Positions 48,290 through 64,000 of a stretch of DNA of 64,000 nt are shown here, one piece after another. The stretch comes from an uncultured Treponemataceae bacterium. Lineage in GTDB: Bacteria; Spirochaetota; Spirochaetia; Treponematales; UBA12059. The notes under the pieces were generated by a model, which was not told where the DNA came from, did not search any database, and was given only the letters and a program-made list of their open reading frames with translations. A program made the translations under genes and the position numbers. Every line of letters begins with the position of its first letter. Position 1 is the stretch's first letter. The stretch lies in the NCBI GenBank assembly GCA_964482955.1, contig CAYZZW010000003.1, positions 68,676 through 132,675 on the forward strand, given 5' to 3'.

Positions 48290-48305
48290 CGGATACCCCA
48301 TTGTC

Positions 48306-49817
48306 TCAGCGGACGCTCTGGGCCAGACGCAGCCCGATGAACTCGTCGCGGTAGGACGGATCGTACGGGTAGCGTATGCTCGTGCGCGCGCCGTCCTCGT
48401 TGTAGTACCAGGAACCGCCGCGCAGGACGCGGTAATCGTCGCCGCCGGGGCCGACCGGATCGGTCTGGTCCGCGGCGTCGTAGCTCCCGAAATTGTCCCA
48501 GCACCATTCCCACACGTTGCCGCTCATGTCGTACAGCCCGAGCTCGTTCGCGGCCTTGAGCGCCACTTCGTGGGCCAGGTCGCCCGAGTTGCCCTTGTAG
48601 AACGCCACCGCGTCGATGTCGTCTGAACCCGCGTAACGGGTGCCCCGCGACTTCTGGCCGCCGCGCGCGGCGTATTCCCATTCGGCTTCGGTGGGCAGGC
48701 GGTAGCCGTCCGCGCCGAAATCGCACGTTACCGAAGCGCCGTCCACGCGGTACGCGGGCGCGAGCCCGTCCTTGAGGCTCTTGGCGTTGCAGAACGCGAC
48801 GGCGTCCAGCCACGACACCGATTCCACGGGAAGGTTCTTGTACCCCTGGATGGCGCTCGGGTTCGAACCCATGACCGACTGCCATTCGCCCTGCGTGACT
48901 TCGTACTTGCTCAGGCGATAGTCGCCCAGCGTCACCGCGTGCACCGGCTCGGCGATGCCGCGCTGGCCCATCTGGAAGGCGCCGCCCTTCACGAGGACGA
49001 ACTCCGACTTGAGCTGCGGCCGAGCCGCCGTGGGCTTGGCCGCGCGAGTGGGGATGGCCGCCGCGGGCTTCTTCGCGGTCGCGGAAGCCGTGTCGACCGT
49101 GGCCGACGAACCCGCCGGGCCCGACGATCTCCGTTCGGCTTCGGAACTCTGCCGCTTGAGCTCCGCCACCTTGTCGATGCGGGCTTTCGCCTCCGCGTAC
49201 TCGGCGGCGGCCACCATGCCCCGTTCGTTCATGCTCTCGAGCACTTCGCGCGCGAACGCCGGGGCCGCCGAATCGAGCGCCTTGTCGACGAGCGCGAGCC
49301 CTTCCTCTTTCGTCAGGATGGCCGCCGCGATGAAGCGACCGCGCTCGACTTCGACGCTTTCGTCCGCGCTCACGGCGTCGCGGAAGGGCAGGGTCATGGC
49401 CTCGACGTATTCGGCGCGCGCCAGCGCGGCTTCCATCGCCTTGGAAGCGGGCGCTTCGGCGCGTGCCGCCTCCAGCGCGTCCACCAGTTCCGAAACGGCG
49501 CGATCCCTCGTCATCCCCGTTTCGCTACTCGGCCCCACCTGACCGTTCGCGGTCATGCCAGCGAGCGCTTCGTCGACGAGCTTCGCCGCGGAATCGCGCG
49601 AAACGGAATCTTTGGCTTCCAGGGCGGACACGATGCCGCGGGCGGCGTCTTTCGGATCCGACGGCGCTGCGGATGGTGCGGTCGTCCGCGTTGAATCTGT
49701 CGTTGTAGAGTTTGTCGCGGTTTCCTTTTTCGTGCAGGAAACGAGCGCGATGAACGTCATCGTCGAAAGCAGCGCCGTGACGCAAAGTACCGCAATCATT
49801 TTGATCGTTCTTGTCAT
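48306..49817 (-). CDS. Lipoprotein with a C-terminal FGE-sulfatase (SUMF1/C-type-lectin-like fold) domain, probably non-catalytic
   Basis: 503-aa ORF. The lipobox is MTRTIKMIAVLCVTALLSTMTFIALVSC, followed by an Ala/Glu-rich helical region. The FGE-sulfatase domain has YRLSKYEVTQGEWQSVMG, YRLPTEAEWEYAARGG, LYDMSGNVWEWCWD and RVLRGGSWYYNEDGAR. The Cys pair of true formylglycine-generating enzymes is absent after RGGSW. Confidence 0.85.
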   Translation of the reverse strand: MTRTIKMIAVLCVTALLSTMTFIALVSCTKKETATNSTTTDSTRTTAPSAAPSDPKDAARGIVSALEAKDSVSRDSAAKLVDEALAGMTANGQVGPSSETGMTRDRAVSELVDALEAARAEAPASKAMEAALARAEYVEAMTLPFRDAVSADESVEVERGRFIAAAILTKEEGLALVDKALDSAAPAFAREVLESMNERGMVAAAEYAEAKARIDKVAELKRQSSEAERRSSGPAGSSATVDTASATAKKPAAAIPTRAAKPTAARPQLKSEFVLVKGGAFQMGQRGIAEPVHAVTLGDYRLSKYEVTQGEWQSVMGSNPSAIQGYKNLPVESVSWLDAVAFCNAKSLKDGLAPAYRVDGASVTCDFGADGYRLPTEAEWEYAARGGQKSRGTRYAGSDDIDAVAFYKGNSGDLAHEVALKAANELGLYDMSGNVWEWCWDNFGSYDAADQTDPVGPGGDDYRVLRGGSWYYNEDGARTSIRYPYDPSYRDEFIGLRLAQSVR

Positions 49818-49850
49818 GCCAGTACTCCCATGAATCGTCTGGTGAACCGT

Positions 49851-51116
49851 TTATTTCCGGATGTCTTCAAAGACGGCTTTCGAACCGTCCCAGCTGAAAT
49901 CGGCCGCTTTCGCGCGCGTTGTCCGGCCGTCGGCGAAGATGTCGGAATCGATGATGTGCCCGAGGATCACATCGCCCGACGCGTCGAGGCGGAGCTGGAT
50001 GCCTTGGGCGAAGCGATAGGTCTTGCCGTCAGCGGCCCGGAGCGGCGTCGGTTCTTTCAGGACGAGTACCGACTTGTCGAAACGTGCCGTGCCGCCCGTG
50101 AAATCCGCTCCCCACCCCAGCGTCTGCACGGCGACACCGCGGATGTCGGTGGTGCCTTCGGATCGCGCCACGCCCTGGATCACGCGGCCTTCGTCGTTCC
50201 AGTTGATCGACATCGCCCAACCGGGTTGGAACGCGTACGCCTTTCCGTCGTTCGCGTCGAGACGCGCCTCTTCATCGAGGTACGCCTCCCCGAGCAGGAT
50301 CGAAGGCTGCCCGCTTTCCGGGCGGTCGAACCAAGCCATGCACCACGCGACGGCAAGGTCGCGTCCCGCGAAGCGGATCTTCTGGCTTAGCAACGCGCCG
50401 CTCTTGACGAGTCCGGATCCGCCGTCATCGAAGCATGTGTAGCGGAATCCGGCGGTGAAATAATACGAACGTCCGTCCAGCGCTTCGAGACTCGTCATGG
50501 CGTCCAAGGCGACCTTGCGACGTCCGAAGACCGCGCGCCCTCCCTCGTCGAAACTCAAGTCGCACGCGTTCACGACGACCGGTCGACCCGTTTCCAGCTT
50601 GAGGGTGCGGACGCCTTGCACGGTTCCGCGCTCGACAAGACCTTCCGTCGTCAGCCACAGTTCCTCGCCTGCCATGAAAGGGTAAGCGTTTCCGTCACGC
50701 GCTTTCAGGATGATATCGTCGATCGGCATCGAAAAATCGCCCGCCAGATCGTACGCCGCGACACGGATTGTCCTGCCCTGAAGCGTCGCGTCCTTTTCTT
50801 CCCTGAATCCGGCTTCGAAAAGCGTTCCGTCCTTGTCGATGCATACCGGGTGGTCCCAACCGCCCATCAGGACGGTAGCCCGTCCGTCCGGCAGCGTCAC
50901 GTCGGCGTCGTTCCGCAAGTAAAGGCGATATCCGCCTCCGTCCAGCTCCGTGACGGAAACGCAATCGAGCTCCTGCCCGTTCCAGGAGAAGGAGCGCTCC
51001 GTATTTCCGCCCGAGCCGACGGCCTGTGCTTCTGGGTCCGCGCTCGTAAAAGGCAACGCGAGCTCGCTGACGATGAGGAGAAGGACAAGGCGGGCAAGGC
51101 GGCTCGGATGGATCAC
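49851..51116 (-). CDS. Exported repeat protein of unknown function
   Basis: 421-aa ORF preceded by GAGGAGG. The N-terminus is signal-like (MIHPSRLARLVLLLIVSELALPFTSA). It has at least five spaced repeats of the form DG(K/R/N)xYxFxxG ... G: DGRATVLMGG, DGNAYPFMAG, DGRSYYFTAG, DGKAYAFQPG, DGKTYRFAQG. I recognised no family. Confidence 0.7.
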   Translation of the reverse strand: MIHPSRLARLVLLLIVSELALPFTSADPEAQAVGSGGNTERSFSWNGQELDCVSVTELDGGGYRLYLRNDADVTLPDGRATVLMGGWDHPVCIDKDGTLFEAGFREEKDATLQGRTIRVAAYDLAGDFSMPIDDIILKARDGNAYPFMAGEELWLTTEGLVERGTVQGVRTLKLETGRPVVVNACDLSFDEGGRAVFGRRKVALDAMTSLEALDGRSYYFTAGFRYTCFDDGGSGLVKSGALLSQKIRFAGRDLAVAWCMAWFDRPESGQPSILLGEAYLDEEARLDANDGKAYAFQPGWAMSINWNDEGRVIQGVARSEGTTDIRGVAVQTLGWGADFTGGTARFDKSVLVLKEPTPLRAADGKTYRFAQGIQLRLDASGDVILGHIIDSDIFADGRTTRAKAADFSWDGSKAVFEDIRK

Positions 51117-51406
51117 GTGTTCCTCCTCGAACTTGTTGGCATGATACGATAATTACGAGGCCGGGTTTTGGGTTACGGGGGAGAAGGAAATTTGTTTCGC
51201 GTTCTTCGCGGATGCTTGAAAACGCCGCATCCGGAAGCGGGGATTCTCTCGACTAGTGATGATGTTGACCTCTGGAAACCGAAGCCGAGTATCGGCGAGC
51301 CCGAACCGTATGTCAAGGATAATGGGCGTCGCTGCGGCTGGTCGAAAAAGATAAAACATGCCGCTTCCGTCAGCTTGATCTCATGTTACACGAGCTTGAT
51401 TCCGGT

Positions 51407-51435
51407 TTGACAGCACCCGAAACGCCCCTTATAGT
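51407..51435 (+). promoter_or_regulatory. Candidate sigma70 promoter for the giant-gene operon
   Basis: TTGACA (51407-51412), a 17-nt spacer, then TATAGT (51430-51435), about 90 nt upstream of the ATG at 51528. It sits inside the AT-richer 411-bp divergent spacer. Confidence 0.45.
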
Positions 51436-51527
51436 GACCGCAACAAGTAACCGAAGACTAATCCGCGTGTTTATCGGGCAGGTCCACGACCGCTTTCCCG
51501 AAAATCCATGCATGAAGGACAAGCCAC

Positions 51528-54500
51528 ATGAAACGTCCGCGCATCGTCGCCCTCCTGACAGTGATCGTCGCCGCAGCTTCCTTCGCCCAAACCCCTTCTT
51601 TGGACGACTACCGCGTGTGGACCCAGCTCAAGGAATACGTCTATTGCGATACCGGCGTGGCGGAATCGGGGGAAGTGCTGGGTATCTTTCCGGATTTTCC
51701 GCCTTTCGCCGATTTCCCCTTTCGGTATCGGGGCCAGGACACCTTCGCGGTCACCGGATCAGGCAACGAGATTTTCGTGGACGGGAAACCGTATTGCCTG
51801 CTCGTGGAAACCGAAGCTGATTTCGCGAAAGCCGACGGACGTTACGAAGCGTTGTGGTTCACGGACGCCGCCCTGCTCAAGCCCGAACGTCTCAAGCTGC
51901 TCCCGAAGCCGCTCGCGGGACGCAGCATCAAGATTACCGGGGCGGACGACGAGACGATTGCCGGCATGGTGAATGCGGGAGTCCTGGATGGCGTGACGGT
52001 GCTCTCCGTCAGTCGGTGCCGTATCGGAGATGATACGGCGATAGCACTGTGCAAAAGGCTTCCCGATCTTGAATATCTTGATATCACCGCCACTGACGTC
52101 GGGGATCGCGGCTTTCTGGAAGGCGTCGTGTCGTTTTGCGGCGGATTGAGAGGACTCAGTATCCGGGAAACCCGAATAACGGAGGCGAGTTACGTCAAGG
52201 GAATTTCCAAACTCGCCACTTTGAGGAACCTGTATCTCGGGGACTGGTCAGGAACCAGCCTGACGGATCGGGCCATTGTCGATGGCGTTTGCGCCGTCAA
52301 AGGGCTCAGGAAGATCGACATCATGTGGGCCAGCAGTCCTACGGATGTTTCAATGGCGGCGCTTTCCGGATTGCCTGAACTCCGGAGCCTCGTTTTTTCC
52401 TGCCCGAAGGTGACGGATCGGGCACTGATGACTATCGCGAAAAACGCGAAAAAGCTGATGGAACTCCGCTTCGGAACCGGTCGGAACGCGAAACAAGATG
52501 ACGCCTTGGTTTCGCTGGGCGCGATGCAGAACCTGAAAATCCTGCATCTCAATACGGATTACGGAGTCGAGTGGAACGAAATCTACGAGCCCATCATGAG
52601 CGAAATCGCCTGGAGAGACGGTATCGGCAAGCTCGGGAATTTGAAGGTATTGGGAATCAACGGGGCGCGAATCACGGAAGCCGACGCGCGCGATGGTCTC
52701 GGTCGGCTCGAAAACCTCGAGTTCCTCCAGCTTATGGGCTCCGATCTGAACGACAGGACCATGTCCGTGGCCTTCGCCAACCTCCATAAGTTAAAGCGCG
52801 TGTATCTGAACGACTGCAAACAAGCCGGCGACGACGGGGCGATCGCTCTCTGCGTCAACAACCCGGGCATGGATACGCTTTACATCAGCCAGTCAACCAT
52901 CGGCGACCGGGCGTTCGTCGACGGGATTTCCCGCCTCAAGTCGCTCAGGACGCTCAACGTGTGGGGCAACCGACGCTTGGGAACGGATGGCGTCGTCGCA
53001 TTGTGCGAAGGATGTCCGGATCTGTTGTCGCTCGACATGCTCGGAGCCCAAGTAGACGTAAAAGCCTTCAACGAAGGCGTCGCATCGCTCAAGAAACTCG
53101 TCAGGCTCGGCGCGCAACAAACGTCGTTGTCGGACGATTTCTTTTCGGGGAATCCCGATATCGCGCCCAGGCTGAAAGTACTTGTCGCACACGATCACAC
53201 CGAATTGACCGATCGTTTCGCCAAAGAAGTATTGCCTAAAATGAGGAACCTTTATTCCCTCACGGTGGCGGGAACCCGGATTTCCGAGGAAGCCCTCTAC
53301 GCCGCGCTTCCGCGCCTCCCCCGCCTCTATTCGATCGACGACCAGACCGTGAAGGATAGGATGCGCTACCTGCTCGAGCGTATCGCCGTGAAAAAGCGGG
53401 TGGGGCCGGATATCTACAGATTCGATCCAGGCACGGGGACGCTCGGCGGACTCAAATGCGGCATGGCGCTGGCCGAGATAGAATCCGTTTACGGCAGGAA
53501 ACTCGTTCCGTGGAAAAACCCGGACGAGTGGGAACGGACGAACTTCGACGCCGTGTACGAACTGTTCGGTCTCAAGATCTGCTCCAAGAACGGCCGCGTG
53601 GCGCGGATCCTGAGCCCGTGGTGGGACATGAAGTTTTCGACCGTCGCCGGAACGACGCTCGGCATGAAACTCGAACGAGGTCTGGCGCTCGAGCGAAAAC
53701 CCGATGACATAAGTCAAAACAGCTTCGCGTTCCGCGATGGTCCGGAAACCCGCTCATTCTTGACTGAAGAAAAAGGTCGGATTGTCCATTTCGAAGTCAA
53801 TACGAAGATCGAATTTCTGGAAACCGCCGGACTGCCGTCGTTCGCTCCTCTGCCGAGGGAACTGGTTGATTCGCTCGGTGACCGGGCATTCATGTTCAAG
53901 ACAGGTAAGGAACTCGAGTTGTGCGGTATCGCGCCGGGCATGAAGATTCCCGAAATTCTCTCGAAAACGTACGCAAATTACGCGGCACTCGACGCCGTAA
54001 GGGAACTTCAAGCGCTGCCCGGCGAGACGATGTATCGTTTTCCGAACGTTGCCTTCGCGGCGAAGAACGGCATCGTGACGCGCGTACAGGGCAACCTATG
54101 GGACGCGCGACTCCATCTATCCAGCATGAACGTGAAGGTGGGCGACGATTCGGCGATGCTCGTGGCTTCGACCGGCGCCCCGCAGCGTACGACGAACCGG
54201 AGCGACGGCCTCCGTGAGCTCGCGTGGGACGCCGCGAAAGCGACGGTCGTCGTCATCGTGGACAGGCACGGAACCGTGGCCGGTTTCCGCCTGGAGATCC
54301 TGGCGTCAGGCGTTACGGGCGGCAACCGTGTATTCGACAACGAAGAAGATCCGAACGCCGGGGAACGCTTCCGCTCAGCCGTCGCGCGAATCTCCGAAGG
54401 ATCCGGGCGCTGGGAAGCATGGGACAACATCCGCGATTTCTCGTGTTCGAATGGCCGCATACTCGGCGTCGCGAGAAACGATGATCCCTACTTCGGCGCA

Positions 54501-55880
54501 GAAGGTCTTTCCATCGGGGGCGCGGAAGGGCAGAAGATCGTCGTGCGGTTCAAGGCGGGCTCGGGGGATTCGATCGGCATGTATTGGATAACCGAAGACG
54601 CGCCGGAATTCGATGAAGAAAAAGCGATGCATCTTCCTCTCGTTTCTGACGGCCAGTTCCGCGACTACGTGTTCGACGTGGGCGCCAGATCTGAATGGGC
54701 GGGCAAGCGGATCACCGGTCTCCGCATCGATCCGACGGAAGGCGGTCCCGGCGGACCGTTCGAGATCGAGTCGATCAAGGGCGTGTATCTATCGAAGTCG
54801 GAGCGCGAGGCGCTCGACCGGAAGAACAATCCGCAGCTCGGAAAATCCTTCGAGCGCATCGTTGCGAACTTGGCGGCCGAATGCGGCATGAGGCCGGGTT
54901 TCCGGACGGATTTCAAAGACGCGGCTATCAAGACTTTTGACCGGTGGAATTCGCCGGAACTCGTCGTGAAAGACGGAGCGGTCATATTCGCGAAGGGCAA
55001 TACCGAAGATCCCGCGTTCGTCCGGCCGTCTACCATGAAGCCGGGCAAGCTCATAGCCCTGCGCTTCCGCAAGACGCCGGGAGCCAGATTCGCGATGGAT
55101 GTCGAACGCGGAACCTGGGACACGCCGGATTTCCAGAGCATACACGTGGAAGGGGTTCCCGAACAGGAATGGTATTCGAGCGGATTCAACGCGGGAGCCG
55201 ATAAGCGCGCGGACTGGGAAACCCGTGGATACGAGGTCAAAAACGACGGCGAGTACCTGGCCGTCTGGACGACGACCGAAGACGGGAAACTTCTGGTGAA
55301 TGTCTATGACGCGAATGGCCGTGAATGGAGTTCGGGACCGCGTTTGGCCGTCGCCGGCATGCCCTGGCATTGGATCGTCAGGATATGGGAAGGTTCGATA
55401 AAGCTGGTAGACTACGCCGAATACGAAATCGTCAAACCGGCGAGTGATTTTGCGAAGATCATGGAGGTCATTTCCGCGGACCCCGCCGGCTGGTATCCGC
55501 TCAATCAAATGAAGGGCCTGGATTCCGCGGGAACGACGCTGAAGGGTACGGCGACCGGTGGCGATCCGAGTCTGGAACGATACGATATGTGTTTTCAAGG
55601 CGACAGGAACCAAACCATCGTGATTCGCGCCAAGGCCGAATCCGGAAAGATGATCGCCCTGTATTGGTGCAGCAACGACACGAATACCATGGACGAGACA
55701 AAGTCCATCCATCTTCCGCTCATCGCGGACGGCAAGTTCCACGATTACGTCTTCAAGGTAGGTTCCGATCCCGATTGGATCGGCAAGACTATATCCGGTC
55801 TCCGCATCGACCCGACGGAAGGCGGCCCCGGTGGCCCGTTCGAGATCGAGTTGATCAAAGGTCTCTACAAAGGAAGGTAA
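51528..55880 (+). CDS. Giant exported protein 1: conserved N-domain, RNI-type leucine-rich repeats, small beta-rich domains, and two copies of an unassigned ~140-aa module flanking a ~220-aa module
   Basis: 1450-aa ORF with a signal-like N-terminus (MKRPRIVALLTVIVAAASFAQ). The LRR array spans roughly aa 140-600 (nt 51945-53327), for example LPDLEYLDITATDVGDRGFLEGV and LENLEFLQLMGSDLNDRTM. The modules end in GLRIDPTEGGPGGPFEIESIKGVY (A1, nt 54378-54788) and GLRIDPTEGGPGGPFEIELIKGLY (A2, nt 55449-55868). Confidence 0.85.
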   Translation: MKRPRIVALLTVIVAAASFAQTPSLDDYRVWTQLKEYVYCDTGVAESGEVLGIFPDFPPFADFPFRYRGQDTFAVTGSGNEIFVDGKPYCLLVETEADFAKADGRYEALWFTDAALLKPERLKLLPKPLAGRSIKITGADDETIAGMVNAGVLDGVTVLSVSRCRIGDDTAIALCKRLPDLEYLDITATDVGDRGFLEGVVSFCGGLRGLSIRETRITEASYVKGISKLATLRNLYLGDWSGTSLTDRAIVDGVCAVKGLRKIDIMWASSPTDVSMAALSGLPELRSLVFSCPKVTDRALMTIAKNAKKLMELRFGTGRNAKQDDALVSLGAMQNLKILHLNTDYGVEWNEIYEPIMSEIAWRDGIGKLGNLKVLGINGARITEADARDGLGRLENLEFLQLMGSDLNDRTMSVAFANLHKLKRVYLNDCKQAGDDGAIALCVNNPGMDTLYISQSTIGDRAFVDGISRLKSLRTLNVWGNRRLGTDGVVALCEGCPDLLSLDMLGAQVDVKAFNEGVASLKKLVRLGAQQTSLSDDFFSGNPDIAPRLKVLVAHDHTELTDRFAKEVLPKMRNLYSLTVAGTRISEEALYAALPRLPRLYSIDDQTVKDRMRYLLERIAVKKRVGPDIYRFDPGTGTLGGLKCGMALAEIESVYGRKLVPWKNPDEWERTNFDAVYELFGLKICSKNGRVARILSPWWDMKFSTVAGTTLGMKLERGLALERKPDDISQNSFAFRDGPETRSFLTEEKGRIVHFEVNTKIEFLETAGLPSFAPLPRELVDSLGDRAFMFKTGKELELCGIAPGMKIPEILSKTYANYAALDAVRELQALPGETMYRFPNVAFAAKNGIVTRVQGNLWDARLHLSSMNVKVGDDSAMLVASTGAPQRTTNRSDGLRELAWDAAKATVVVIVDRHGTVAGFRLEILASGVTGGNRVFDNEEDPNAGERFRSAVARISEGSGRWEAWDNIRDFSCSNGRILGVARNDDPYFGAEGLSIGGAEGQKIVVRFKAGSGDSIGMYWITEDAPEFDEEKAMHLPLVSDGQFRDYVFDVGARSEWAGKRITGLRIDPTEGGPGGPFEIESIKGVYLSKSEREALDRKNNPQLGKSFERIVANLAAECGMRPGFRTDFKDAAIKTFDRWNSPELVVKDGAVIFAKGNTEDPAFVRPSTMKPGKLIALRFRKTPGARFAMDVERGTWDTPDFQSIHVEGVPEQEWYSSGFNAGADKRADWETRGYEVKNDGEYLAVWTTTEDGKLLVNVYDANGREWSSGPRLAVAGMPWHWIVRIWEGSIKLVDYAEYEIVKPASDFAKIMEVISADPAGWYPLNQMKGLDSAGTTLKGTATGGDPSLERYDMCFQGDRNQTIVIRAKAESGKMIALYWCSNDTNTMDETKSIHLPLIADGKFHDYVFKVGSDPDWIGKTISGLRIDPTEGGPGGPFEIELIKGLYKGR

Positions 55881-55883
55881 ACG

Positions 55884-58800
55884 ATGAACAAATCATCCCG
55901 CGTCACGCTGATGCTCGCGCTGCTGTGTGCGGCCATGGTGACCGCGCAGGCCCCGTCTCCGGACGGGTACCGGCACTGCATCGTGTTCAAGGAAAACGCG
56001 TTCATCGACGACTTTTGCGCGCGACCCGGGGACCTCGTGAGCATAAGCGTCGATTTCCCGCCGTGGGGCAGCGTGCCGTTCCGCTATGAAGGCCAGGAAT
56101 CGATACGGATCTCCGGCAAGGGCAACGAGATCTTCATAGACGGGAAACCGTGGTGCCTGCTCATCGAGTCGGAGGCGGATTTCGCCAAGGCGGATTCGCG
56201 CTACGCCGCGCTCTGGTTCACGAAAGGCGAACTCCTGAAGCCGGAGTACTTCAAGAAGATCCCCGGATCGCTGGCCAATAGGATCATCCGGGTATCGAAA
56301 ACGACCACGGAACAGTGGAAGGCGATAGCGGAGTCCGGAGCCTTGGACGCGGTAACCATTCTGGACATTTCCGGTTGCCCGATCCAGGGCCATTGGTTCC
56401 TGCCGACGCTCAAGCGCATGCCGAATCTCGTGTACCTCGACGCGAGCAATACGAATATCAACGATGGCGGAGCACTGGCGAGTCTCCAAGAGTATGCGGG
56501 AACTCCGAAACTAGAAACGTTGCTCTTGCATGGCGTGATTGTCTGGGAAGCCGATTTGGTGAACGGGATTTCAAAGCTAACGATGCTTCGTTCCCTCGCG
56601 TTCGTCAACTATTGGGAAGGTTTTCCAAAACCTGAGGTCATAAGTGCTCTGTGCAAGCTTGAAAAACTGGAAAATCTCGAACTGGGACCGGTTGCTTTTC
56701 TTTCCGACGACAATCTCAAGACAATCTGCGAACGGCTCGTGAATCTCCGGAAACTGCGTATCTATTCGAAAAAAGCAACGTCGGCAGCCGTCATCGACTC
56801 AATTTCAAAACGCACAGACCTCGTGGAATTGCAACTCGGTCTGTCGACGAACGGACTTTCGGAAGACGCGGTCGTGTCGCTGTCGAAGCTGCAAAACCTC
56901 AAAAAGCTCAACCTCAATACGGATTACTGGCCCAACTGGAACGAGCCTTTCAAGCCGCTGCTGACGGAACGGAGCTGGATCGACGGTCTCGGCAAGCTCG
57001 CTTCGCTCGAAAGCTTAACCGCGTACGGGGCGCGGATCACGGAAAAAGCCGCGCGGGAGGGATTGGGGCGGCTTTCGAACTTGACCTATCTCGATCTGTG
57101 CGGCAACGAGCTCGACGACGCGGGGGCCAAGGCCGCGTTCCCGACGCTCGGGAAGCTCCGCCACCTCAACCTCTATCGATCTCCCAAGTTGGGCGATGAC
57201 GGAGTGGTAGCCGTCTGCGCTGGTGCTCCGCAACTTGAAACGCTGCTCGTGACGAGCTCCGGACTTTCGGATCGCGGCATCAAGGAGGGAATCGCCAAGC
57301 TGTCGAAGTTGCGCGTGACGAAGCTGTCGATCAACAAGATAACGGCGGACGGCTTGATCGCCCTCTGCTCGGCGATACCGGGCATTACCACGTTGGACAT
57401 CGGCGGACAGAATATCGAGGACCGCGGTTTCGTCGAAGGCTTGCCCAAACTGAAAAATCTGGAAGTATTGAACGCATGGCAGTCGCTCATTACCGACCGG
57501 TACTTCCTGGAGCATCCCGAAATGGCGACGAAGTTCCGCGTGCTTGATTTCCATGACCACGCGATGATGACCGATCGCTTCGCCAAGGAAGTCCTGCCGA
57601 CGATGACAAACCTGCATTCCTTGAACGTAGACAAAAATCCCGTGAGCGAGGAAGCGGTCGTGTCGGTACTGCCGCGGCTTCCGCGTCTCGACACTCTGGA
57701 CGGAGAACCGGTATTTGAACGGCAAAAGCGGTATGTCGAGCGGATTGGCATCAAGAAACGCGTCGGGTCGGGAATTTATACGTTCGACGTGGCGACGAAC
57801 GTCTACGGCGGGGTGCGGCTCGGCATGACCTTGCAGGAAGTCGCGTCCATCTACGGTTCAATGCCCACACGCGTGGCCAAGCCCAGCGAATGGGAGGCGA
57901 AGACCTTCGAATCGGTCTGGGAGAACTTCAACCTCCGCTTTGGGGTAAAACGGAACCGCGTCGTCCGCATCGCGGGGCAGTGGTGGGATCCGAGGTATAC
58001 GACCAAGACTGGCGTGCGACCCGGGACGATCCTCGCCGCGGCCAAGACGGCCGACCGGGCGCCGGACGAAGTCCGCGACGACGCGCTCGTGTACCGCAAC
58101 GGCATCGTCTCGTTCACGATCGGCGCGTACGCCTTGGTCGGTTCCGATCGCTACGTCACGGATTTCTCGGCCGACGCGGACATCGACGCGCTCGAAGCCT
58201 CCGGTCTGCCGAAGCTCGCGCCGTTCGACGATGTACTCAATACCGCTTTGAAAGGCGACGCCTTTACGCTCAGGACTGGGGACAAGCCTTCGATCGGCGG
58301 CATCCGGCCGGGCATGAAGTACGACGGCGTCGTATGGAACGTCTACGCCGGGCAGGCGCCGCTCGAGGGATCCCCGGGCGTGAAAGCCGCAGCCGGCGAA
58401 AAGTCGTACCATTACGGCAACGTCTCGTTCGGCGCGAAGAACGGTCTCGTTACCTGGGTGTCGGGCAACGCGTGGGACGAACGATTCAAGGTTTCGAAAC
58501 CCCGCATGCGCGTGGGCGATCCGGCGGACGAACTCCTCAGGAAAGCCGGCCCGGCGGCGAGGAAGGCGAAAACGGACGACGGGCTCGACGATCTGGCGTG
58601 GGAAACGCCCGACGCCGTGGTGCATGTTTTTATCGACCGATATGGCACGATCGCGGGCTTCCGGCTTGACGCCCAAACCACCGCTAAAATACCGCGCCAT
58701 CCGTTCTGGAACGATCCGACGGATTACGGAAAGGGTGTGTCCGCGTGGGGCTCGCTCAAGCCGGGAGACGTCGCGGAATTCACGGCGGGCGGGGTGTCCT

Positions 58801-61715
58801 TCGCGATGCGCTTCGTGCCGGGCACGACCTTCCCGCAGGGATGGGAAGACGTCGACGTCGCGACGCTCGACGCGGGATTCTGGCTCGGCGAGACGGAAGT
58901 GACCTGGGAGCTCTGGGATGCCGTGGTCTCGTGGGCTACCGATCCGGCGAGGGGTGAAGCGATGTATCGTTTCGCCCAAACGGGTTGGCAGGGCGGATTC
59001 ACCGGACCCCAATGGATCGTGGATCCGCGCAGCACCGACCAGCATCCCGTGACGCTCGTCGCCTGGCGCAGTTCCATGATTTGGTGCAACGCGCTCACCG
59101 AATGGTACAACGCGACGAACGGCACTTCGTACACCTGCGCGTATTACGAAGACGCCGATTATAAAAAACCCATACGCACCTGCACGGACGAACGAAACGT
59201 CAATACCATCGAAGGCAAGCAGGACCGGCCCTATGTCAAGGCGGAGCTTCCCGGCAACGTGGATCCCGCCCGCTGCGACGCCACGGGCTTCCGGATGCAG
59301 CGCGCGCTCGAGTGGGAACTGGCGGCCCGCTACCGCGGCGACACGAACGACGATGGAGATATCCGGGATCCGGGAGAGTATTCTCCCTATAACTGGGCAA
59401 GCGGCGCCAAAGGGGACTTCAACGACATGGCCGCGACCGCGGAGGTGGCGAACGTCGATAAAGTCCTGACCGAACGCGTCGGAACGAGGAAGGCAAATGC
59501 CCTCGGCATCCACGACATGAGCGGAAACGTGTCGGAATGGTGTTTTGACGGTGAACCGACCGAAGGCAATCCCGTCCGCACCCGCGTCGGCTCCTCCTGG
59601 TCGTGGGGCCCGGGAATACACAACGGTTGCGCCGTGGTCGAACGCTGGATGCTGTATGGCACGAATACGGGCACCGGCTTGCGCGTAGCGCGGTCGTGGT
59701 TCCCCGAGGCAACCGCGGCGCGGACCGCTACGCAAAAAGAAGCGTACTGGCGCTCCGCTCTCGAAAAGTTGGCGCTTTCGCCCCGCGGCTGGAAGGCGGC
59801 CGACCAGGTCGCCGATCTCCAATCGGACCGCGGCCTCGTCTCCGGCCAGGCGACGGGCGGAAAGCCGATCCTCTTCCGTGACGATCTCCGTCTCTTCGGA
59901 GAAGCCGGCCAGGCGATTCCGATCCGCGTTTCCGCGGCCTCCGGTTCCGCGCTTCGCCTGTACTGGATCACGGACGACGACGGCGCGTGGTCCGAGAAAA
60001 AATCATTGCGCGTTCCGATCAAAGCCGACGGCACAGTCCACGACTACGTCCTGCAAGTCGGGACGAACGCGGCGTGGGCTGGCAAGATCGTCACCGCCCT
60101 CAGGCTCGTTCCGGCGGAAGGCGGGAAGGGCGGCGCGTTCTCCGTCGACTTCGGCGGCGGCGCCGCGTGCTACGAAGAGAGCCGCGCGAACCCCGAATTC
60201 GCCAAGGCGATCGAACTGCTCTCCGCCCATCCGGAAGTCTGGAGCGCGTGGAACCAGGTGGAAGGGCTCGCGGTTTCGAAGGGCATAATCAAGGGTAAGG
60301 CTACGGGGGGCGATCCTTTCATCGGCATCAATCGGACGCGCCTTGTCGGCACCACGACACAGAAGATCCTCATCCGCATCAAGGCCGTTTCGGGTGATCG
60401 AACCGCCATATTCTGGACCACGACCGACGATACGAACTGGGGCGGCGACAAGTGCGTGAGCGTGCCGCTCGTCCCCGACGGCGCTTTCCACGACTACGTG
60501 TTCGACGTCGGCGCGAATCCGGCTTGGGCAGGCTGGGTGATTAACAGGCTCCGCATAGATCCGACCGCGGGCGGTCCGGGCGGGCCTTTCGAGATCGAGT
60601 CGATCAAAGGCGTGTACGTATCGAAAGAAGAACGGGCGGCCGCGGAGCGCGCCGCGAATCCGCAGCTCGGGAAATCCTTCGAGCGCATCGTGGCTGATCT
60701 TGCCGCCGAGCGTGGGATGAAACCGGGTTTCCGGACGGATTTCAAGGACGCCGCGTTCAAGACCTTCGACCTCTGGGAAGAACCTGAAATCGCCGTAAAA
60801 GACGGCTTTCTTCAGTTCACGAAAGGGAAGACGCAAAATCCCGTGCTCGCGCGGTACCAAGCGATGAAAGCGGGAAGGATGATCGCGCTGCGGTTTTCGA
60901 TGCTGAAAGGAGCGCGCTTCTGCTTCATGCTCGAACGTGGCGAATGGCCGACCCCGGCGTATCAAAAGTCGATCCTGTGCGGCGGATCGGAAAGCGGATG
61001 GGGGTTGGATGAAGGCGGGGTTGACGCGACAAAGGCCCTCGCGTGGGATGCAAGCGGCTACACGGTCAAGCAGGGACCCGAATACCTGGCCGTATGGACC
61101 GCGACGCCCGACGGGAAGATCGGTCTCGCCGTGTACGATGGTACCGGGCGCGAGTGGCGCGCCGTATCATGTGCGGACGGCTCGGGCGCTCCGTGGATGC
61201 TGACCATCCGGATCGGTCAAGGTTCTATCAAGCTCATCGACTACGCGGAATACGAAACAGTCCAGCTGGCGAGCGACTTTCCGAAAATCATGGACGGCAT
61301 CTCCGCGAACCCGGCCGGGTGGAACCCGATCAACCACCTGAAGGATTTGAAAGCCGCGGGCACGATTTTGAAGGGTGTGGCGACGGGGGACGATCCGTAC
61401 ATGGAGCGCTACGACCTGTGCTTCGAGGGGGACATAAGTCACAAGATAGTCGTTCGGCTCAAAGCTGTTTCAGGTGACGACACCGAATTTCTGTGGATCA
61501 CCGCGGAGGAACCGAATTGGGGCGGGAACAAAGGACTCGGTGTTTCACTCATCCCGGACGGGCAGTTTCACGACTACGTGTTCGACGTGGGCAGCCGGAA
61601 AGAATGGGCCGGCAAGCGGATCACGGGACTCAGGCTCGATCCGACCGCGGGCGGACCGGGCGGGTCCTTCGAGCTCGAATCGATCAAGGGCGTGTACGAA
61701 ACGCAGAATCGCTGA
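55884..61715 (+). CDS. Giant exported protein 2: paralogue of protein 1 with an extra FGE-sulfatase domain and three copies of the ~140-aa module
   Basis: 1943-aa ORF starting 3 nt after the previous stop, with AGGAAGG upstream. The signal is MNKSSRVTLMLALLCAAMVTAQA. It is collinear with protein 1 over aa 1-930. An inserted FGE-sulfatase domain covers roughly nt 58776-59702 (FWLGETEVTWELWDAV, FRMQRALEWELAARY, IHDMSGNVSEWCFDG). The modules are B1 59742-60158, B2 60195-60617 and B3 61275-61697. Confidence 0.85.
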   Translation: MNKSSRVTLMLALLCAAMVTAQAPSPDGYRHCIVFKENAFIDDFCARPGDLVSISVDFPPWGSVPFRYEGQESIRISGKGNEIFIDGKPWCLLIESEADFAKADSRYAALWFTKGELLKPEYFKKIPGSLANRIIRVSKTTTEQWKAIAESGALDAVTILDISGCPIQGHWFLPTLKRMPNLVYLDASNTNINDGGALASLQEYAGTPKLETLLLHGVIVWEADLVNGISKLTMLRSLAFVNYWEGFPKPEVISALCKLEKLENLELGPVAFLSDDNLKTICERLVNLRKLRIYSKKATSAAVIDSISKRTDLVELQLGLSTNGLSEDAVVSLSKLQNLKKLNLNTDYWPNWNEPFKPLLTERSWIDGLGKLASLESLTAYGARITEKAAREGLGRLSNLTYLDLCGNELDDAGAKAAFPTLGKLRHLNLYRSPKLGDDGVVAVCAGAPQLETLLVTSSGLSDRGIKEGIAKLSKLRVTKLSINKITADGLIALCSAIPGITTLDIGGQNIEDRGFVEGLPKLKNLEVLNAWQSLITDRYFLEHPEMATKFRVLDFHDHAMMTDRFAKEVLPTMTNLHSLNVDKNPVSEEAVVSVLPRLPRLDTLDGEPVFERQKRYVERIGIKKRVGSGIYTFDVATNVYGGVRLGMTLQEVASIYGSMPTRVAKPSEWEAKTFESVWENFNLRFGVKRNRVVRIAGQWWDPRYTTKTGVRPGTILAAAKTADRAPDEVRDDALVYRNGIVSFTIGAYALVGSDRYVTDFSADADIDALEASGLPKLAPFDDVLNTALKGDAFTLRTGDKPSIGGIRPGMKYDGVVWNVYAGQAPLEGSPGVKAAAGEKSYHYGNVSFGAKNGLVTWVSGNAWDERFKVSKPRMRVGDPADELLRKAGPAARKAKTDDGLDDLAWETPDAVVHVFIDRYGTIAGFRLDAQTTAKIPRHPFWNDPTDYGKGVSAWGSLKPGDVAEFTAGGVSFAMRFVPGTTFPQGWEDVDVATLDAGFWLGETEVTWELWDAVVSWATDPARGEAMYRFAQTGWQGGFTGPQWIVDPRSTDQHPVTLVAWRSSMIWCNALTEWYNATNGTSYTCAYYEDADYKKPIRTCTDERNVNTIEGKQDRPYVKAELPGNVDPARCDATGFRMQRALEWELAARYRGDTNDDGDIRDPGEYSPYNWASGAKGDFNDMAATAEVANVDKVLTERVGTRKANALGIHDMSGNVSEWCFDGEPTEGNPVRTRVGSSWSWGPGIHNGCAVVERWMLYGTNTGTGLRVARSWFPEATAARTATQKEAYWRSALEKLALSPRGWKAADQVADLQSDRGLVSGQATGGKPILFRDDLRLFGEAGQAIPIRVSAASGSALRLYWITDDDGAWSEKKSLRVPIKADGTVHDYVLQVGTNAAWAGKIVTALRLVPAEGGKGGAFSVDFGGGAACYEESRANPEFAKAIELLSAHPEVWSAWNQVEGLAVSKGIIKGKATGGDPFIGINRTRLVGTTTQKILIRIKAVSGDRTAIFWTTTDDTNWGGDKCVSVPLVPDGAFHDYVFDVGANPAWAGWVINRLRIDPTAGGPGGPFEIESIKGVYVSKEERAAAERAANPQLGKSFERIVADLAAERGMKPGFRTDFKDAAFKTFDLWEEPEIAVKDGFLQFTKGKTQNPVLARYQAMKAGRMIALRFSMLKGARFCFMLERGEWPTPAYQKSILCGGSESGWGLDEGGVDATKALAWDASGYTVKQGPEYLAVWTATPDGKIGLAVYDGTGREWRAVSCADGSGAPWMLTIRIGQGSIKLIDYAEYETVQLASDFPKIMDGISANPAGWNPINHLKDLKAAGTILKGVATGDDPYMERYDLCFEGDISHKIVVRLKAVSGDDTEFLWITAEEPNWGGNKGLGVSLIPDGQFHDYVFDVGSRKEWAGKRITGLRLDPTAGGPGGSFELESIKGVYETQNR

Positions 61716-61724
61716 GGAGAAAAC

Positions 61725-62318
61725 ATGGATATTGCCGACGGCAAGCACCGCATGAGCGACGAGGATATGCGTCGTTTGATAGATCTAAGCGTATCGCCGT
61801 ATCTGCAGCTGGCGTACCGGCTCGTGGACGTGCCGCGGAAATACCACGGCAACATGTTCCGTCACCAGGGAGCCACCTTCTTCATCCTCATCGACTACGG
61901 CTACACGGACCACGTCCTGCTCAAGGCTTCGATCATCCACGACATCCTCGAGGACACGCCTACGAAACCGGAAGAGATCGAACGGCTCGACGACGGGGCC
62001 GCGGTGCTGGCGCTCGTGCGCGAAGTGACGAAGGCGGAGGATGAAACGAAGGACGAGTTCCTCGGACGCATCGTGGCCGCGGGATCCGAACGGGCGCGCG
62101 TCCTCAAGTGCGCGGACCGGATTTCCAACATGACGGACATCGGCTTTTCGTGCGAGTACGAGGAGCTCATGAAAACCGTCAGGGAGACGGAGCGGCACAT
62201 CCTGCCGATGGCGCGCTCGATCAATCCGTGGATGGCGAAGGAGCTCGAGGATCTCGTCGCGTCGCGTACGGCGATAGCCGCGCGAATGCTCGAAAACGGA
62301 AAAGGAAGAAGATTCTAA
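61725..62318 (+). CDS. HD-domain hydrolase resembling the SpoT/RelA (p)ppGpp-hydrolase domain (small-alarmone-hydrolase-like)
   Basis: 197-aa ORF starting 9 nt after the giant gene, preceded by GAGGAG. Motifs are FRHQGATFFIL, ASIIHDILEDTPTKPEEI, VLALVREVTK and ARVLKCADRISNM, in the same order as the SpoT hydrolase HD motifs. There is no signal peptide. Confidence 0.75.
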   Translation: MDIADGKHRMSDEDMRRLIDLSVSPYLQLAYRLVDVPRKYHGNMFRHQGATFFILIDYGYTDHVLLKASIIHDILEDTPTKPEEIERLDDGAAVLALVREVTKAEDETKDEFLGRIVAAGSERARVLKCADRISNMTDIGFSCEYEELMKTVRETERHILPMARSINPWMAKELEDLVASRTAIAARMLENGKGRRF

Positions 62319-62362
62319 AAGGCCGGACCGCTTGGTCTCGTTCGATGCTTGCGCGACCTGCT

Positions 62363-62908
62363 TCACGCCCGCAGCATGCCCCTGAAGCCGCGTACCGCAT
62401 AGTAGGAGTCCGCGCCGTTGTGGTAGACGAACACGCGGCCGTAGCGGCGGTCGCCGAAGATGGCGCCGCCGAGCTTCCGCACTCCGGGCGGCGTCTCGAG
62501 CCAGCTCGAGGTCTTCAAGTCGAACTCGCCGAGTTCCTGGAGCGCGCGGTACCGCTCCTCGGTGAGGAGCTCGATTCCCAGCTCCTTGGCCAGGCTGGCG
62601 GCGTCGCCCGCGGGCTGATGCTCCTTACGCGACTCCAGCCCCGCGCGGTCGTAGCACAGGCTCCGCCTGCCGGCCGGGCTTTCAGCCGCGCAGTCGACGA
62701 ACAGGCATTCGCCGGTTTTCCCGTCGATTCCGATCACGTCGGGCTCCCCGCCCGTGCGCTCCATGCCGTCGACCGCGTCGAGCTTTTTCGGATTCGCGTC
62801 GAGCCGGGCGCGGACCGTCTCCCACGCGACGCCCTCGTGGCGTTCCGCGTTCGCCTCGAAGCGGAACCGCAGGATTTCGGTCAATTCTTTCCGTCGTTTC
62901 GCGTCCAT
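62363..62908 (-). CDS. DUF4256-family protein
   Basis: Track ORF trimmed to Met13 (ATG at 62908). Recognisable family strings are MERTGGEPDVIGID, RRSLCYD, KTSSWLETP and VFVYHNGADSYYAVRGFRG. Confidence 0.75.
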   Translation of the reverse strand: MDAKRRKELTEILRFRFEANAERHEGVAWETVRARLDANPKKLDAVDGMERTGGEPDVIGIDGKTGECLFVDCAAESPAGRRSLCYDRAGLESRKEHQPAGDAASLAKELGIELLTEERYRALQELGEFDLKTSSWLETPPGVRKLGGAIFGDRRYGRVFVYHNGADSYYAVRGFRGMLRA

Positions 62909-62940
62909 GCGTTTCCCCCTCCCGTTCGGGCGGCTTGACC

Positions 62941-63426
62941 TCAACCGACCTCGTAGGCGCGGCGCAGCGCGGCCACGTCGAACTTTTTCATGGCCATGAA
63001 CGCCTCGGTGACCGCGCGGCGCTGACCGGTCGTCCCGGTTTGCAGCATCTCACCGAGTCCGGACGGCACGATCTGCCACGACACGCCGTACTTGTCGCGC
63101 AGCCAGCCGCATTGCTCCGCCTCGGGATACGCGGACAGCCGCTCCCAGAACCGGTCGATCTCTTCCTGGTCGTCGCATTCGACCATGAACGACACCGACG
63201 GATTGAACCGGAACTCGGGACCGGCGTTGATGGCGATGAACCTGGACCCGCGTATCTCGAACTCGATGGTGAGGATGTCGCCTTCCTCGTGGCCCGTGAT
63301 CTCCTCGCCGACGTCGGTATAGCGGTCGACGGCGAGGATCCGACCGTCCTCGAACACCGACAGATAGAAGTCGACGGCTTCCTTCGCGTTGCCGTCGAAC
63401 CAGAGGTTCGGCGTGATTCCTCTCAT
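62941..63426 (-). CDS. VOC-superfamily protein (PhnB / 3-demethylubiquinone-9 3-methyltransferase-domain type)
   Basis: 161-aa ORF, MRGITPNLWFDGNAKEAVDFYLSVF ... CGWLRDKYGVSWQIVP ... MKKFDVAALRRAY, a pattern typical of this family. Confidence 0.8.
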   Translation of the reverse strand: MRGITPNLWFDGNAKEAVDFYLSVFEDGRILAVDRYTDVGEEITGHEEGDILTIEFEIRGSRFIAINAGPEFRFNPSVSFMVECDDQEEIDRFWERLSAYPEAEQCGWLRDKYGVSWQIVPSGLGEMLQTGTTGQRRAVTEAFMAMKKFDVAALRRAYEVG

Positions 63427-63496
63427 GGCGCGCCCCTTCCCGGATCCGTCGTCCGGTTTCCCTCAAGATACCGAAATCCGGGCGGAACGAGCACGT

Positions 63497-64000
63497 TCAC
63501 CACACGCCGGGAATGAGCTTGAAGCGCACCCGTTTCACGTACTCTTCGTAGCCGGGCAGCCCTTCGCGCAGCACCTTTTCCTCGTTCGCGATGCGGAGGG
63601 CGAGCACGAACGGCATGAGGAGGGCGGGCGCGAGCGCCACGAACGATCCGAGCGCCAGGGCCGATCCAGCGTAGATGAAGATGATCGCCGTGTACATGGG
63701 ATGCCGCACGATCGAGTAGAGCCCCGTATCGACCAGGGTTTGACGCTCCTGGATTTCCACGACGCGCGACGCGTAGGCGTTCTGGAGCATCGCGACCAGG
63801 TTGACGACGTAGCCGCCCGTCACGACGGCGAAGCCGACGACGACGAGCCAGGTCGGCACGGCCGTCCAGCCGTAGCGCCGGTCCAACCCGGGCAGCGCGT
63901 AGACGAGGAGAATCGCGATGGAGGACGCGACGACGAACGCCACCTGCGCCTTTTGCGTCTCGCGCGTCTTGAGCCGCTTGCGGAGCAGTTCCCGGTCCGT
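63497..64000 (-). CDS. Isoprenylcysteine carboxyl / phospholipid methyltransferase-family membrane protein; the 5' end lies beyond the right edge
   Basis: The C-terminal motif is VRHPMYTAIIFIYAGSALALGS...LRIANEEKVLREGLPGYEEYVKRVRFKLIPGVW. My translation upstream of the track start (GTG at 63943) stays open to position 64000 (...DRELLRKRLKTRETQKAQ), so the real start is probably outside the window. Confidence 0.75.
   Translation of the reverse strand, partial: TDRELLRKRLKTRETQKAQVAFVVASSIAILLVYALPGLDRRYGWTAVPTWLVVVGFAVVTGGYVVNLVAMLQNAYASRVVEIQERQTLVDTGLYSIVRHPMYTAIIFIYAGSALALGSFVALAPALLMPFVLALRIANEEKVLREGLPGYEEYVKRVRFKLIPGVW

Follow-up and report, generated by a model that had tools for sequence, protein, structure and literature searches.

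A repeated jelly-roll module outside Pfam and NCBIfam in two predicted secreted leucine-rich repeat proteins of an uncultured Treponemataceae bacterium

A stretch of 64,000 nucleotides from the genome of an uncultured Treponemataceae bacterium (GenBank assembly GCA_964482955.1, contig CAYZZW010000003.1, positions 68,676 to 132,675; hereafter the window, to which all coordinates refer) carries two long open reading frames (ORFs) on the + strand, A and B, encoding 1450 and 1943 amino acids. Together they contain five copies of a module of about 140 residues to which a preliminary description of this DNA, made from its letters, had been unable to give a family name. The question raised by this locus is what this module is and what it may do in the two proteins. 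We found that it represents a family not curated in Pfam or NCBIfam, lying within a known fold and resembling carbohydrate-binding modules (CBMs) both in that fold and in the domains that accompany it. The two genes and the five copies are as follows.

51528-55880, + strand: gene A, encoding a predicted signal peptide, an N-terminal domain, a leucine-rich repeat (LRR) region, a duplicated mid region, module A1, a 220-residue spacer and module A2
55884-61715, + strand: gene B, laid out like A but with an FGE-sulfatase-like domain and a further module, B1, in addition
54378-54788, + strand: module A1, residues 951-1087 of A, with ARNDDP in place of ATGGDP
55449-55868, + strand: module A2, residues 1308-1447 of A, at the C-terminus
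59742-60158, + strand: module B1, residues 1287-1425 of B, following the FGE-like domain; the most divergent copy (LRLVPAEGGKGG)
60195-60617, + strand: module B2, residues 1438-1578 of B
61275-61697, + strand: module B3, residues 1798-1938 of B, at the C-terminus; the copy that was modelled structurally

All five copies are in frame with A and B and occupy the coordinates that the preliminary description had assigned to them. They measure 137-141 residues and can be aligned over 142 columns, 30 of which are invariant, with 36-50% identity to A1. All ten pairwise BLASTP comparisons were significant (E values of 1e-31 to 1.8e-57, 37-56% identity). Moreover, a hidden Markov model (HMM) of the family, run with filters off against the entire window translated in all six frames, returned exactly these five copies, with domain E values of 1e-39 to 1e-46 and no further match below E=1. 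The landmarks listed earlier can be recognized in the alignment: a W near the start, ATGGDP, IxIRxKAxSG, YWxT, DGxFHDYVFxVG and WAGKxITGLRxDP. The singling out of B1 as the divergent copy also proved right, and the common end motif holds in general, the exception being A2, which ends in FEIELIKGLY with an L where an S had been described.

Nucleotide identity among the copies is only 61-73%, from which we conclude that the module duplications are old. The start-to-start spacing is 1080 nt from A1 to A2 and again from B2 to B3, and 450 nt from B1 to B2. Since the last two copies are spaced by 1080 nt in both genes, the unit of module, spacer and module predates the gene duplication. Proteins A and B are themselves paralogous, with identities of 39% in residues 2-923 and of 53% in roughly the last 509 residues.

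At a threshold as loose as E<=10 the five copies have no match among the models of Pfam-A and NCBIfam, in agreement with the earlier inability to name a family. When 64 relatives of the module were compared with Pfam and NCBIfam at E<=10, no family emerged and only scattered single matches at chance level were seen. Although it has no name in these databases, the module is a member of a large family and is neither an orphan nor rare. When 1.84 billion representatives of clusters (at 50% identity) were scanned exhaustively with HMMER, there were 2,999 matches at E<=1e-3, of which 1,096 reached E<=1e-10 and 103 reached E<=1e-30; a word-indexed search had recovered three short relatives only. Named sources of the relatives include Desantisbacteria, Chloroflexota, Omnitrophota, Acidobacteriota, Cohnella and Paenibacillus. 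A search for related loci found four in genomes and three in metagenomes, all distant (29-36% identity) and none on a viral contig, the genome loci being in metagenome-assembled genomes (MAGs) of Sumerlaeia, Kiritimatiellae and Lentisphaeraceae. In their sources the relatives are annotated as "hypothetical protein" or are named after other domains that they contain (LamG-like, Ig-like, SLH, discoidin).

Repetition is common in the family. Among 151 proteins that were drawn from the best matches and passed a local HMM re-scan, many of them metagenomic fragments, 131 have at least two copies and some as many as eight, with a median linker of 19 residues. One member of 6462 residues (P0026) shows an extreme repetition, with 28 stretches matched by the module profile.

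For the fold, an AlphaFold2 model of B3 was built from an alignment of eight sequences. It is a confident model (predicted local distance difference test, pLDDT, 94.4; predicted template modelling score, pTM, 0.88) and consists of an N-terminal helix followed by ten strands arranged as a beta-jelly-roll. The alternation of hydrophobic residues had led to the guess of a beta-sandwich, which this model and its jelly-roll neighbours bear out. Foldseek against the PDB gave 81 matches at E<=1e-3, mostly to CBM4, CBM6, CBM16, CBM22-like, CBM28, CBM29 and CBM86 domains, other CBMs attached to glycoside hydrolases (GH), and domains of phage tailspikes; CBM11-like domains were also among the structural neighbours. 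The matches to solved CBMs had E values of 7e-6 to 5e-4 and template modelling (TM) scores of 0.45-0.60. Against BFVD, which holds predicted viral structures, phage tip-attachment and straight-fibre proteins came at the top, with TM of 0.70-0.75. Where B3 has its helix the wider family has a strand-like IxFxFD...EGW motif, and the N-terminal helix is thus a feature of the subfamily.

Near-invariance is seen at W16, G30, D40-P41, W111, R120 and D122-P123 in B3 numbering. As they are kept across relatives with very different enzymes, they probably determine the fold, and we regard them as probably structural rather than ligand-specifying. The conserved R61, K63 and W74, which lie on the beta5-beta6 hairpin, are candidates for a functional face; the table of conservation drawn up strand by strand was insufficient to define a binding face.

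A link to a solved structure was obtained with a profile of 69 family sequences. Searched against the PDB sequences, it gave a sole match, to residues 490-626 of 8gtc chain M (E=1.3e-10, 44.7 bits, profile positions 3-134). The same chain also had the best TM among the PDB matches of B3 (0.71, normalised by the query), with a root-mean-square deviation of 3.2 A over 139 columns and 19% identity. The module family is homologous to this domain. The profile made from the five copies gave only chance PDZ matches in the PDB (E 0.16), so the connection to 8gtc runs through the wider family. Chain M of 8gtc is the megatron baseplate protein of roseophage vB_DshS-R4C, in which residues 482-629 are inserted in a mannanase-like peripheral domain (PMC10276861). 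In addition, six of the 69 family members match PHROG 2589, "tail protein", and a tblastn search of B3 against 50,697 phage records found nothing.

In size and fold the module falls within the CBM4/6/11/22/29 type (about 120-160 residues, jelly-roll), judging from the AlphaFold2 model and the Foldseek matches. No deposited CBM was matched in the profile search of all PDB sequences, a result that rules out only those CBM families that have a solved member. The company that the module keeps in its relatives is typical of a CBM. Pfam domains that accompany it in 43 full-length relatives include WbsX (5), Beta_helix (4), GH99 (3) and a CEMIP beta-helix with G8 (2), as well as GH28, DUF5722, GDSL esterases, CBM96, F5/8 type C, sialidase-like CBM and LamG domains. 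Domains for anchoring or sorting are also present in this set: dockerin (2), SLH, and Por_Secre_tail (3). Relatives from Lentisphaeraceae and Kiritimatiellae have the order module, module, WbsX/GH99-like domain, module. Two relatives of 937 residues, one from a Lentisphaeraceae MAG (L003, 1758-4568) and one from a JGI metagenome (L007, 5478-8288), carry two modules at the N-terminus and one at the C-terminus, with a WbsX/GH99-like domain in between. In the Sumerlaeia loci (L001 and L004) a long stretch without assignment and a segment resembling fn3 precede two modules. As for the position next to a catalytic module by which CAZy defines CBMs, relatives have WbsX, GH99, GH28, beta-helix, CEMIP/G8 or GDSL domains, whereas A and B have LRR and FGE-like domains only. 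A type IX sorting signal was also looked for: neither A nor B nor the modules match Por_Secre_tail or the C-terminal domain of the type IX secretion system in Pfam or NCBIfam, and the three relatives that carry Por_Secre_tail carry it as a separate domain.

The fold and the domain context support the carbohydrate- or ligand-binding role proposed as a possibility in the preliminary description, and from them we infer that the module binds sugars. We lean towards the reading that the modules are non-catalytic glycan-binding domains, whose copies in A and B would attach secreted LRR proteins to polysaccharide in a multivalent manner, and we consider it fairly probable. In such a mechanism the two or three copies per protein would act jointly as a multivalent glycan anchor of A and B, both presumed to be secreted by the Sec pathway and co-transcribed. 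Through this anchor the protein-binding LRR part and the FGE-like part would stay attached to a surface of polysaccharide, which may be the envelope or capsule of the cell itself or an external glycan such as a host or algal polysaccharide, and several weak sites per chain would raise avidity.

Several observations weigh against this reading. No experimental carbohydrate-binding data were found for any member of the family, the phage domain included; residues 482-629 of the megatron protein were called a "carbohydrate-binding domain" for their topology, similar to that of CtCBM11, without a reported binding assay (PMC10276861). The curated CBM models of Pfam and NCBIfam are not matched, and only one of the 69 members touches CBM_11 (E 0.012). 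The likeness to solved CBMs is moderate (TM 0.45-0.6, 9-16% identity), and the jelly-roll also serves protein binding, ephrin-receptor and Cry-toxin domains being in the same Foldseek list. Moreover, Pfam and NCBIfam reveal no recognisable carbohydrate-active catalytic domain in A or B, and consequently the classical role of a CBM in targeting an enzyme does not apply to these two proteins.

Other explanations were considered. That the repeat is an artefact of chance or composition in G+C-rich sequence, with no real domain behind it, has practically no chance of being true. Nothing was found in its favour beyond the fact that the G+C content of the window (0.57-0.74) does inflate spurious ORFs, and it is refuted by the pairwise E values (1e-31 to 1e-57), by thousands of homologues in other phyla, by the confident structure model and by the gene calls, A and B being called identically on independent Logan assemblies (SRR10083294 and SRR10083296). 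A more serious proposal is that the modules are inert structural spacers, rigid beads comparable to Ig-like or fn3 repeats, which bind no ligand and keep the LRR and FGE-like parts at a distance from the cell. In favour of such beads are the tandem arrays of as many as eight copies, or 28 stretches in the 6,462-residue protein, joined by short linkers (median 19 residues); the strongest conservation is in residues of the fold-core or turn type (W, G, DP, LRxDP). However, the last two modules of A and of B are split by a 220-residue domain and form no stalk, modules flank catalytic domains on both sides in relatives, as CBMs do, and the nearest structural neighbours are jelly-rolls that bind ligands and not Ig or fn3 domains, which relatives carry separately for the spacer role. 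We judge an inert role to be distinctly improbable.

It is also conceivable that the modules bind protein or the envelope of their own cell, for retention, sorting or protein-protein adhesion, and are not lectins for external glycans. The position of the last module would suit such a function, as it ends no more than 15 residues from the C-terminus in 82 of the 151 family proteins, as it does in A and B. The rest of A and B consists of protein-interaction domains (LRR), the phage homologues belong to the host-adsorption apparatus, and protein-binding jelly-rolls are among the Foldseek matches. These terminus counts are nevertheless soft because many of the proteins are metagenomic fragments, and the N-terminal copies in 63 of the 151 together with many internal ones fit a sorting signal poorly. 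Some relatives have sorting or anchoring domains of their own (Por_Secre_tail, SLH, dockerin), and the company of polysaccharide-active domains points to glycans instead. This alternative seems to us unlikely, and binding to glycans is the reading we retain.

The remaining domains of A and B are given below.

51993-53327, + strand: LRR region of A, about residues 156-600, its extent taken from the alignment of A with B; Pfam LRR_14 (E 1.5e-12), LRR_4 (E 1.5e-13) and LRR_6
56328-57683, + strand: LRR region of B, about residues 149-600; Pfam LRR_14 (E 5.2e-17) and LRR_4, with weak internalin-like NCBIfam matches
58860-59549, + strand: FGE-sulfatase-like (SUMF1/GldK/PvdO-type) domain of B, residues 993-1222; Pfam PF03781
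54789-55448, + strand: spacer of A, 220 residues between A1 and A2, orphan and beta-rich
60618-61274, + strand: spacer of B, 220 residues between B2 and B3, 54% identical to the spacer of A

The LRR stretch is about 450 residues long in both proteins, with scores above the curated cutoffs: in A and B respectively LRR_14 scored 47.4 and 62.1 bits (cutoff 40) and LRR_4 scored 50.9 and 33.5 bits (cutoff 27). PF03781 was found in B with 68.1 bits (cutoff 23.3; E 1.3e-18) over profile positions 32-191 of 255. The nearest NCBIfam models to this FGE-like domain are GldK, GldJ and PvdO, members of the family other than FGE itself, and all of them lie far under their cutoffs. A mid region of about 330 residues (about 53341-54332 in A, residues 605-935 or so, and about 57700-58680 in B) shows a weak internal duplication with a unit of about 165 residues (BLASTP E 1e-4) and the motif G[LI]xxGMxxxEI...NGxVxR. 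It matches no Pfam family, the only hit being a sub-threshold one to DUF7256, a domain of unknown function (DUF), at E 0.01.

The 220-residue spacer likewise has no Pfam match, and a word-based search of 5.8 billion proteins gave no homologue. Its AlphaFold2 model is of low confidence (pLDDT 59.5) and its weak Foldseek matches to galectin/ConA-like structures (TM 0.3-0.5) are no more than a hint; the spacer may be a lineage-specific lectin-like domain. The combination of LRR, FGE-like domain, modules and orphan domain in A and B is unusual. For this whole architecture no orthologue was found, although for protein A the search was limited to 8,000 candidates from a word filter, and as it missed even the paralogue B the absence of orthologues of A has only slight force.

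With regard to expression and secretion, the following signals were noted.

51528-51587, + strand: predicted Sec signal peptide of A, MKRPRIVALLTVIVAAASFA, followed by QT; recognized by eye in the translation, without a lipobox
55884-55946, + strand: predicted Sec signal peptide of B, MNKSSRVTLMLALLCAAMVTA, followed by QA; recognized by eye in the translation, without a lipobox
51407-51435, + strand: sigma-70-like promoter match, TTGACA-17-TATAGT, 11 of 12 positions, 93 nt upstream of gene A; a match to the consensus only

The start codon of B lies 3 nt past the stop codon of A (55878-55886), and this gap suggests that A and B form one operon and are possibly translationally coupled. On the - strand a second sigma-70-like match (51316-51288, 10 of 12) stands back-to-back with the one upstream of A in the intergenic region of 411 nt. 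The paired matches are consistent with divergent transcription, while the number of sigma-70-like sites in the region is not above that of shuffled controls. The divergent run (44087-51116, minus strand) comprises three genes, encoding a CHAT+TPR protein of 1404 residues, a protein of 503 residues with an FGE-sulfatase domain and a hypothetical, secreted-looking protein of 421 residues. FGE-like domains thus flank the divergent promoter region, one in the 503-residue protein and one inside protein B. One member of the module family (P0006) also has 1404 residues and was considered as possibly being the CHAT protein of the window; this identification was rejected, the equal length being coincidental. 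Downstream of B (61725-63943) are genes for a small HD-domain protein (weak HD_4), a DUF4256 protein, a PhnB/3-demethylubiquinone-9 3-methyltransferase-like protein and a methyltransferase of the ICMT/PEMT family, which appear unrelated to the modules. The G+C content is 0.57-0.61 over positions 50001-62000, which hold both LRR genes and the gene upstream of them, compared with 0.65-0.74 elsewhere in the window; this dip could reflect a foreign origin or a different amino-acid composition.

If the modules do bind glycans, a function would be provided for several thousand protein clusters that are now "hypothetical" or named by other domains, and proteins that degrade polysaccharides or lie at the cell surface could be better annotated in the little-studied phyla Kiritimatiellota, Lentisphaerota, Sumerlaeota, Omnitrophota and Desantisbacteria. 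The "carbohydrate-binding domain" of the R4C baseplate, so named from topology, would gain an experimental footing, and at this locus it would suggest that two orphan LRR proteins are presented on a glycan surface or directed to one. Even then no current concept would be overturned, as it is common for secreted multidomain proteins to bear CBM-like jelly-rolls. A more far-reaching proposal, which we put forward only tentatively and think rather doubtful as a whole, is that the module founds a major uncatalogued CBM family of about 3,000 clusters. It would range from the Planctomycetes-Verrucomicrobia-Chlamydiae (PVC) group, Omnitrophota, Acidobacteriota and Firmicutes to the baseplates of marine phages and be recognizable by a GxDP...LRxDP signature. 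As part of the same proposal A and B would exemplify a novel class of LRR receptor or adhesin that is secreted and anchored to glycans, with two modules clamping a lineage-specific, galectin-like orphan domain, and the glycine-rich GGPGG loop specific to the subfamily might tune specificity, for example towards anionic or sulfated glycans.

Among known systems, the jelly-roll CBMs (CBM4, 6, 11, 16, 22, 28, 29 and 86) are similar to the module in size (about 130-150 residues) and in their galactose-binding-domain-like fold. They share with its relatives the occurrence in tandem repeats and the attachment to glycoside hydrolases, lyases and esterases, whereas the GxDP and LRxDP signature is the module's own and the identity is 9-16%. 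The R4C domain retains the landmarks EGW, DP, W and LRxD of the family, and it is accessory to a machine that recognizes surfaces. It differs in being a single copy inside the mannanase-like domain of a phage tail protein, not a repeat in a cellular LRR protein, and also in having LRFDF for LRxDP and no GGPGG loop. The internalin-like secreted LRR adhesins share with A and B their secretion and an LRR stretch of about 450 residues followed by beta-sandwich domains. However, the internalin model of NCBIfam scores 26.7 bits against a cutoff of 1600, A and B lack an LPXTG, GW or SLH anchor, and their C-terminal modules are of another family.

A last comparison is with a family of beta-mannan-binding CBMs recently proposed in GH26 enzymes of Bacteroides and annotated earlier as an internal DUF. 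These CBMs can be inserted in a mannanase, can occur as repeats, or can belong to surface proteins that bind glycans without being enzymes, and two tryptophans conserved across the family are essential (bioRxiv 10.64898/2026.02.11.704390). Compared by description only, that family comprises 82 proteins, mostly of Bacteroidota, whereas our module is found in thousands of clusters, with members seen in the PVC group, Omnitrophota, Acidobacteriota, Chloroflexota and Firmicutes. By analogy, the case of the Bacteroides GH26 enzymes shows how internal "DUFs" can become CBM families.

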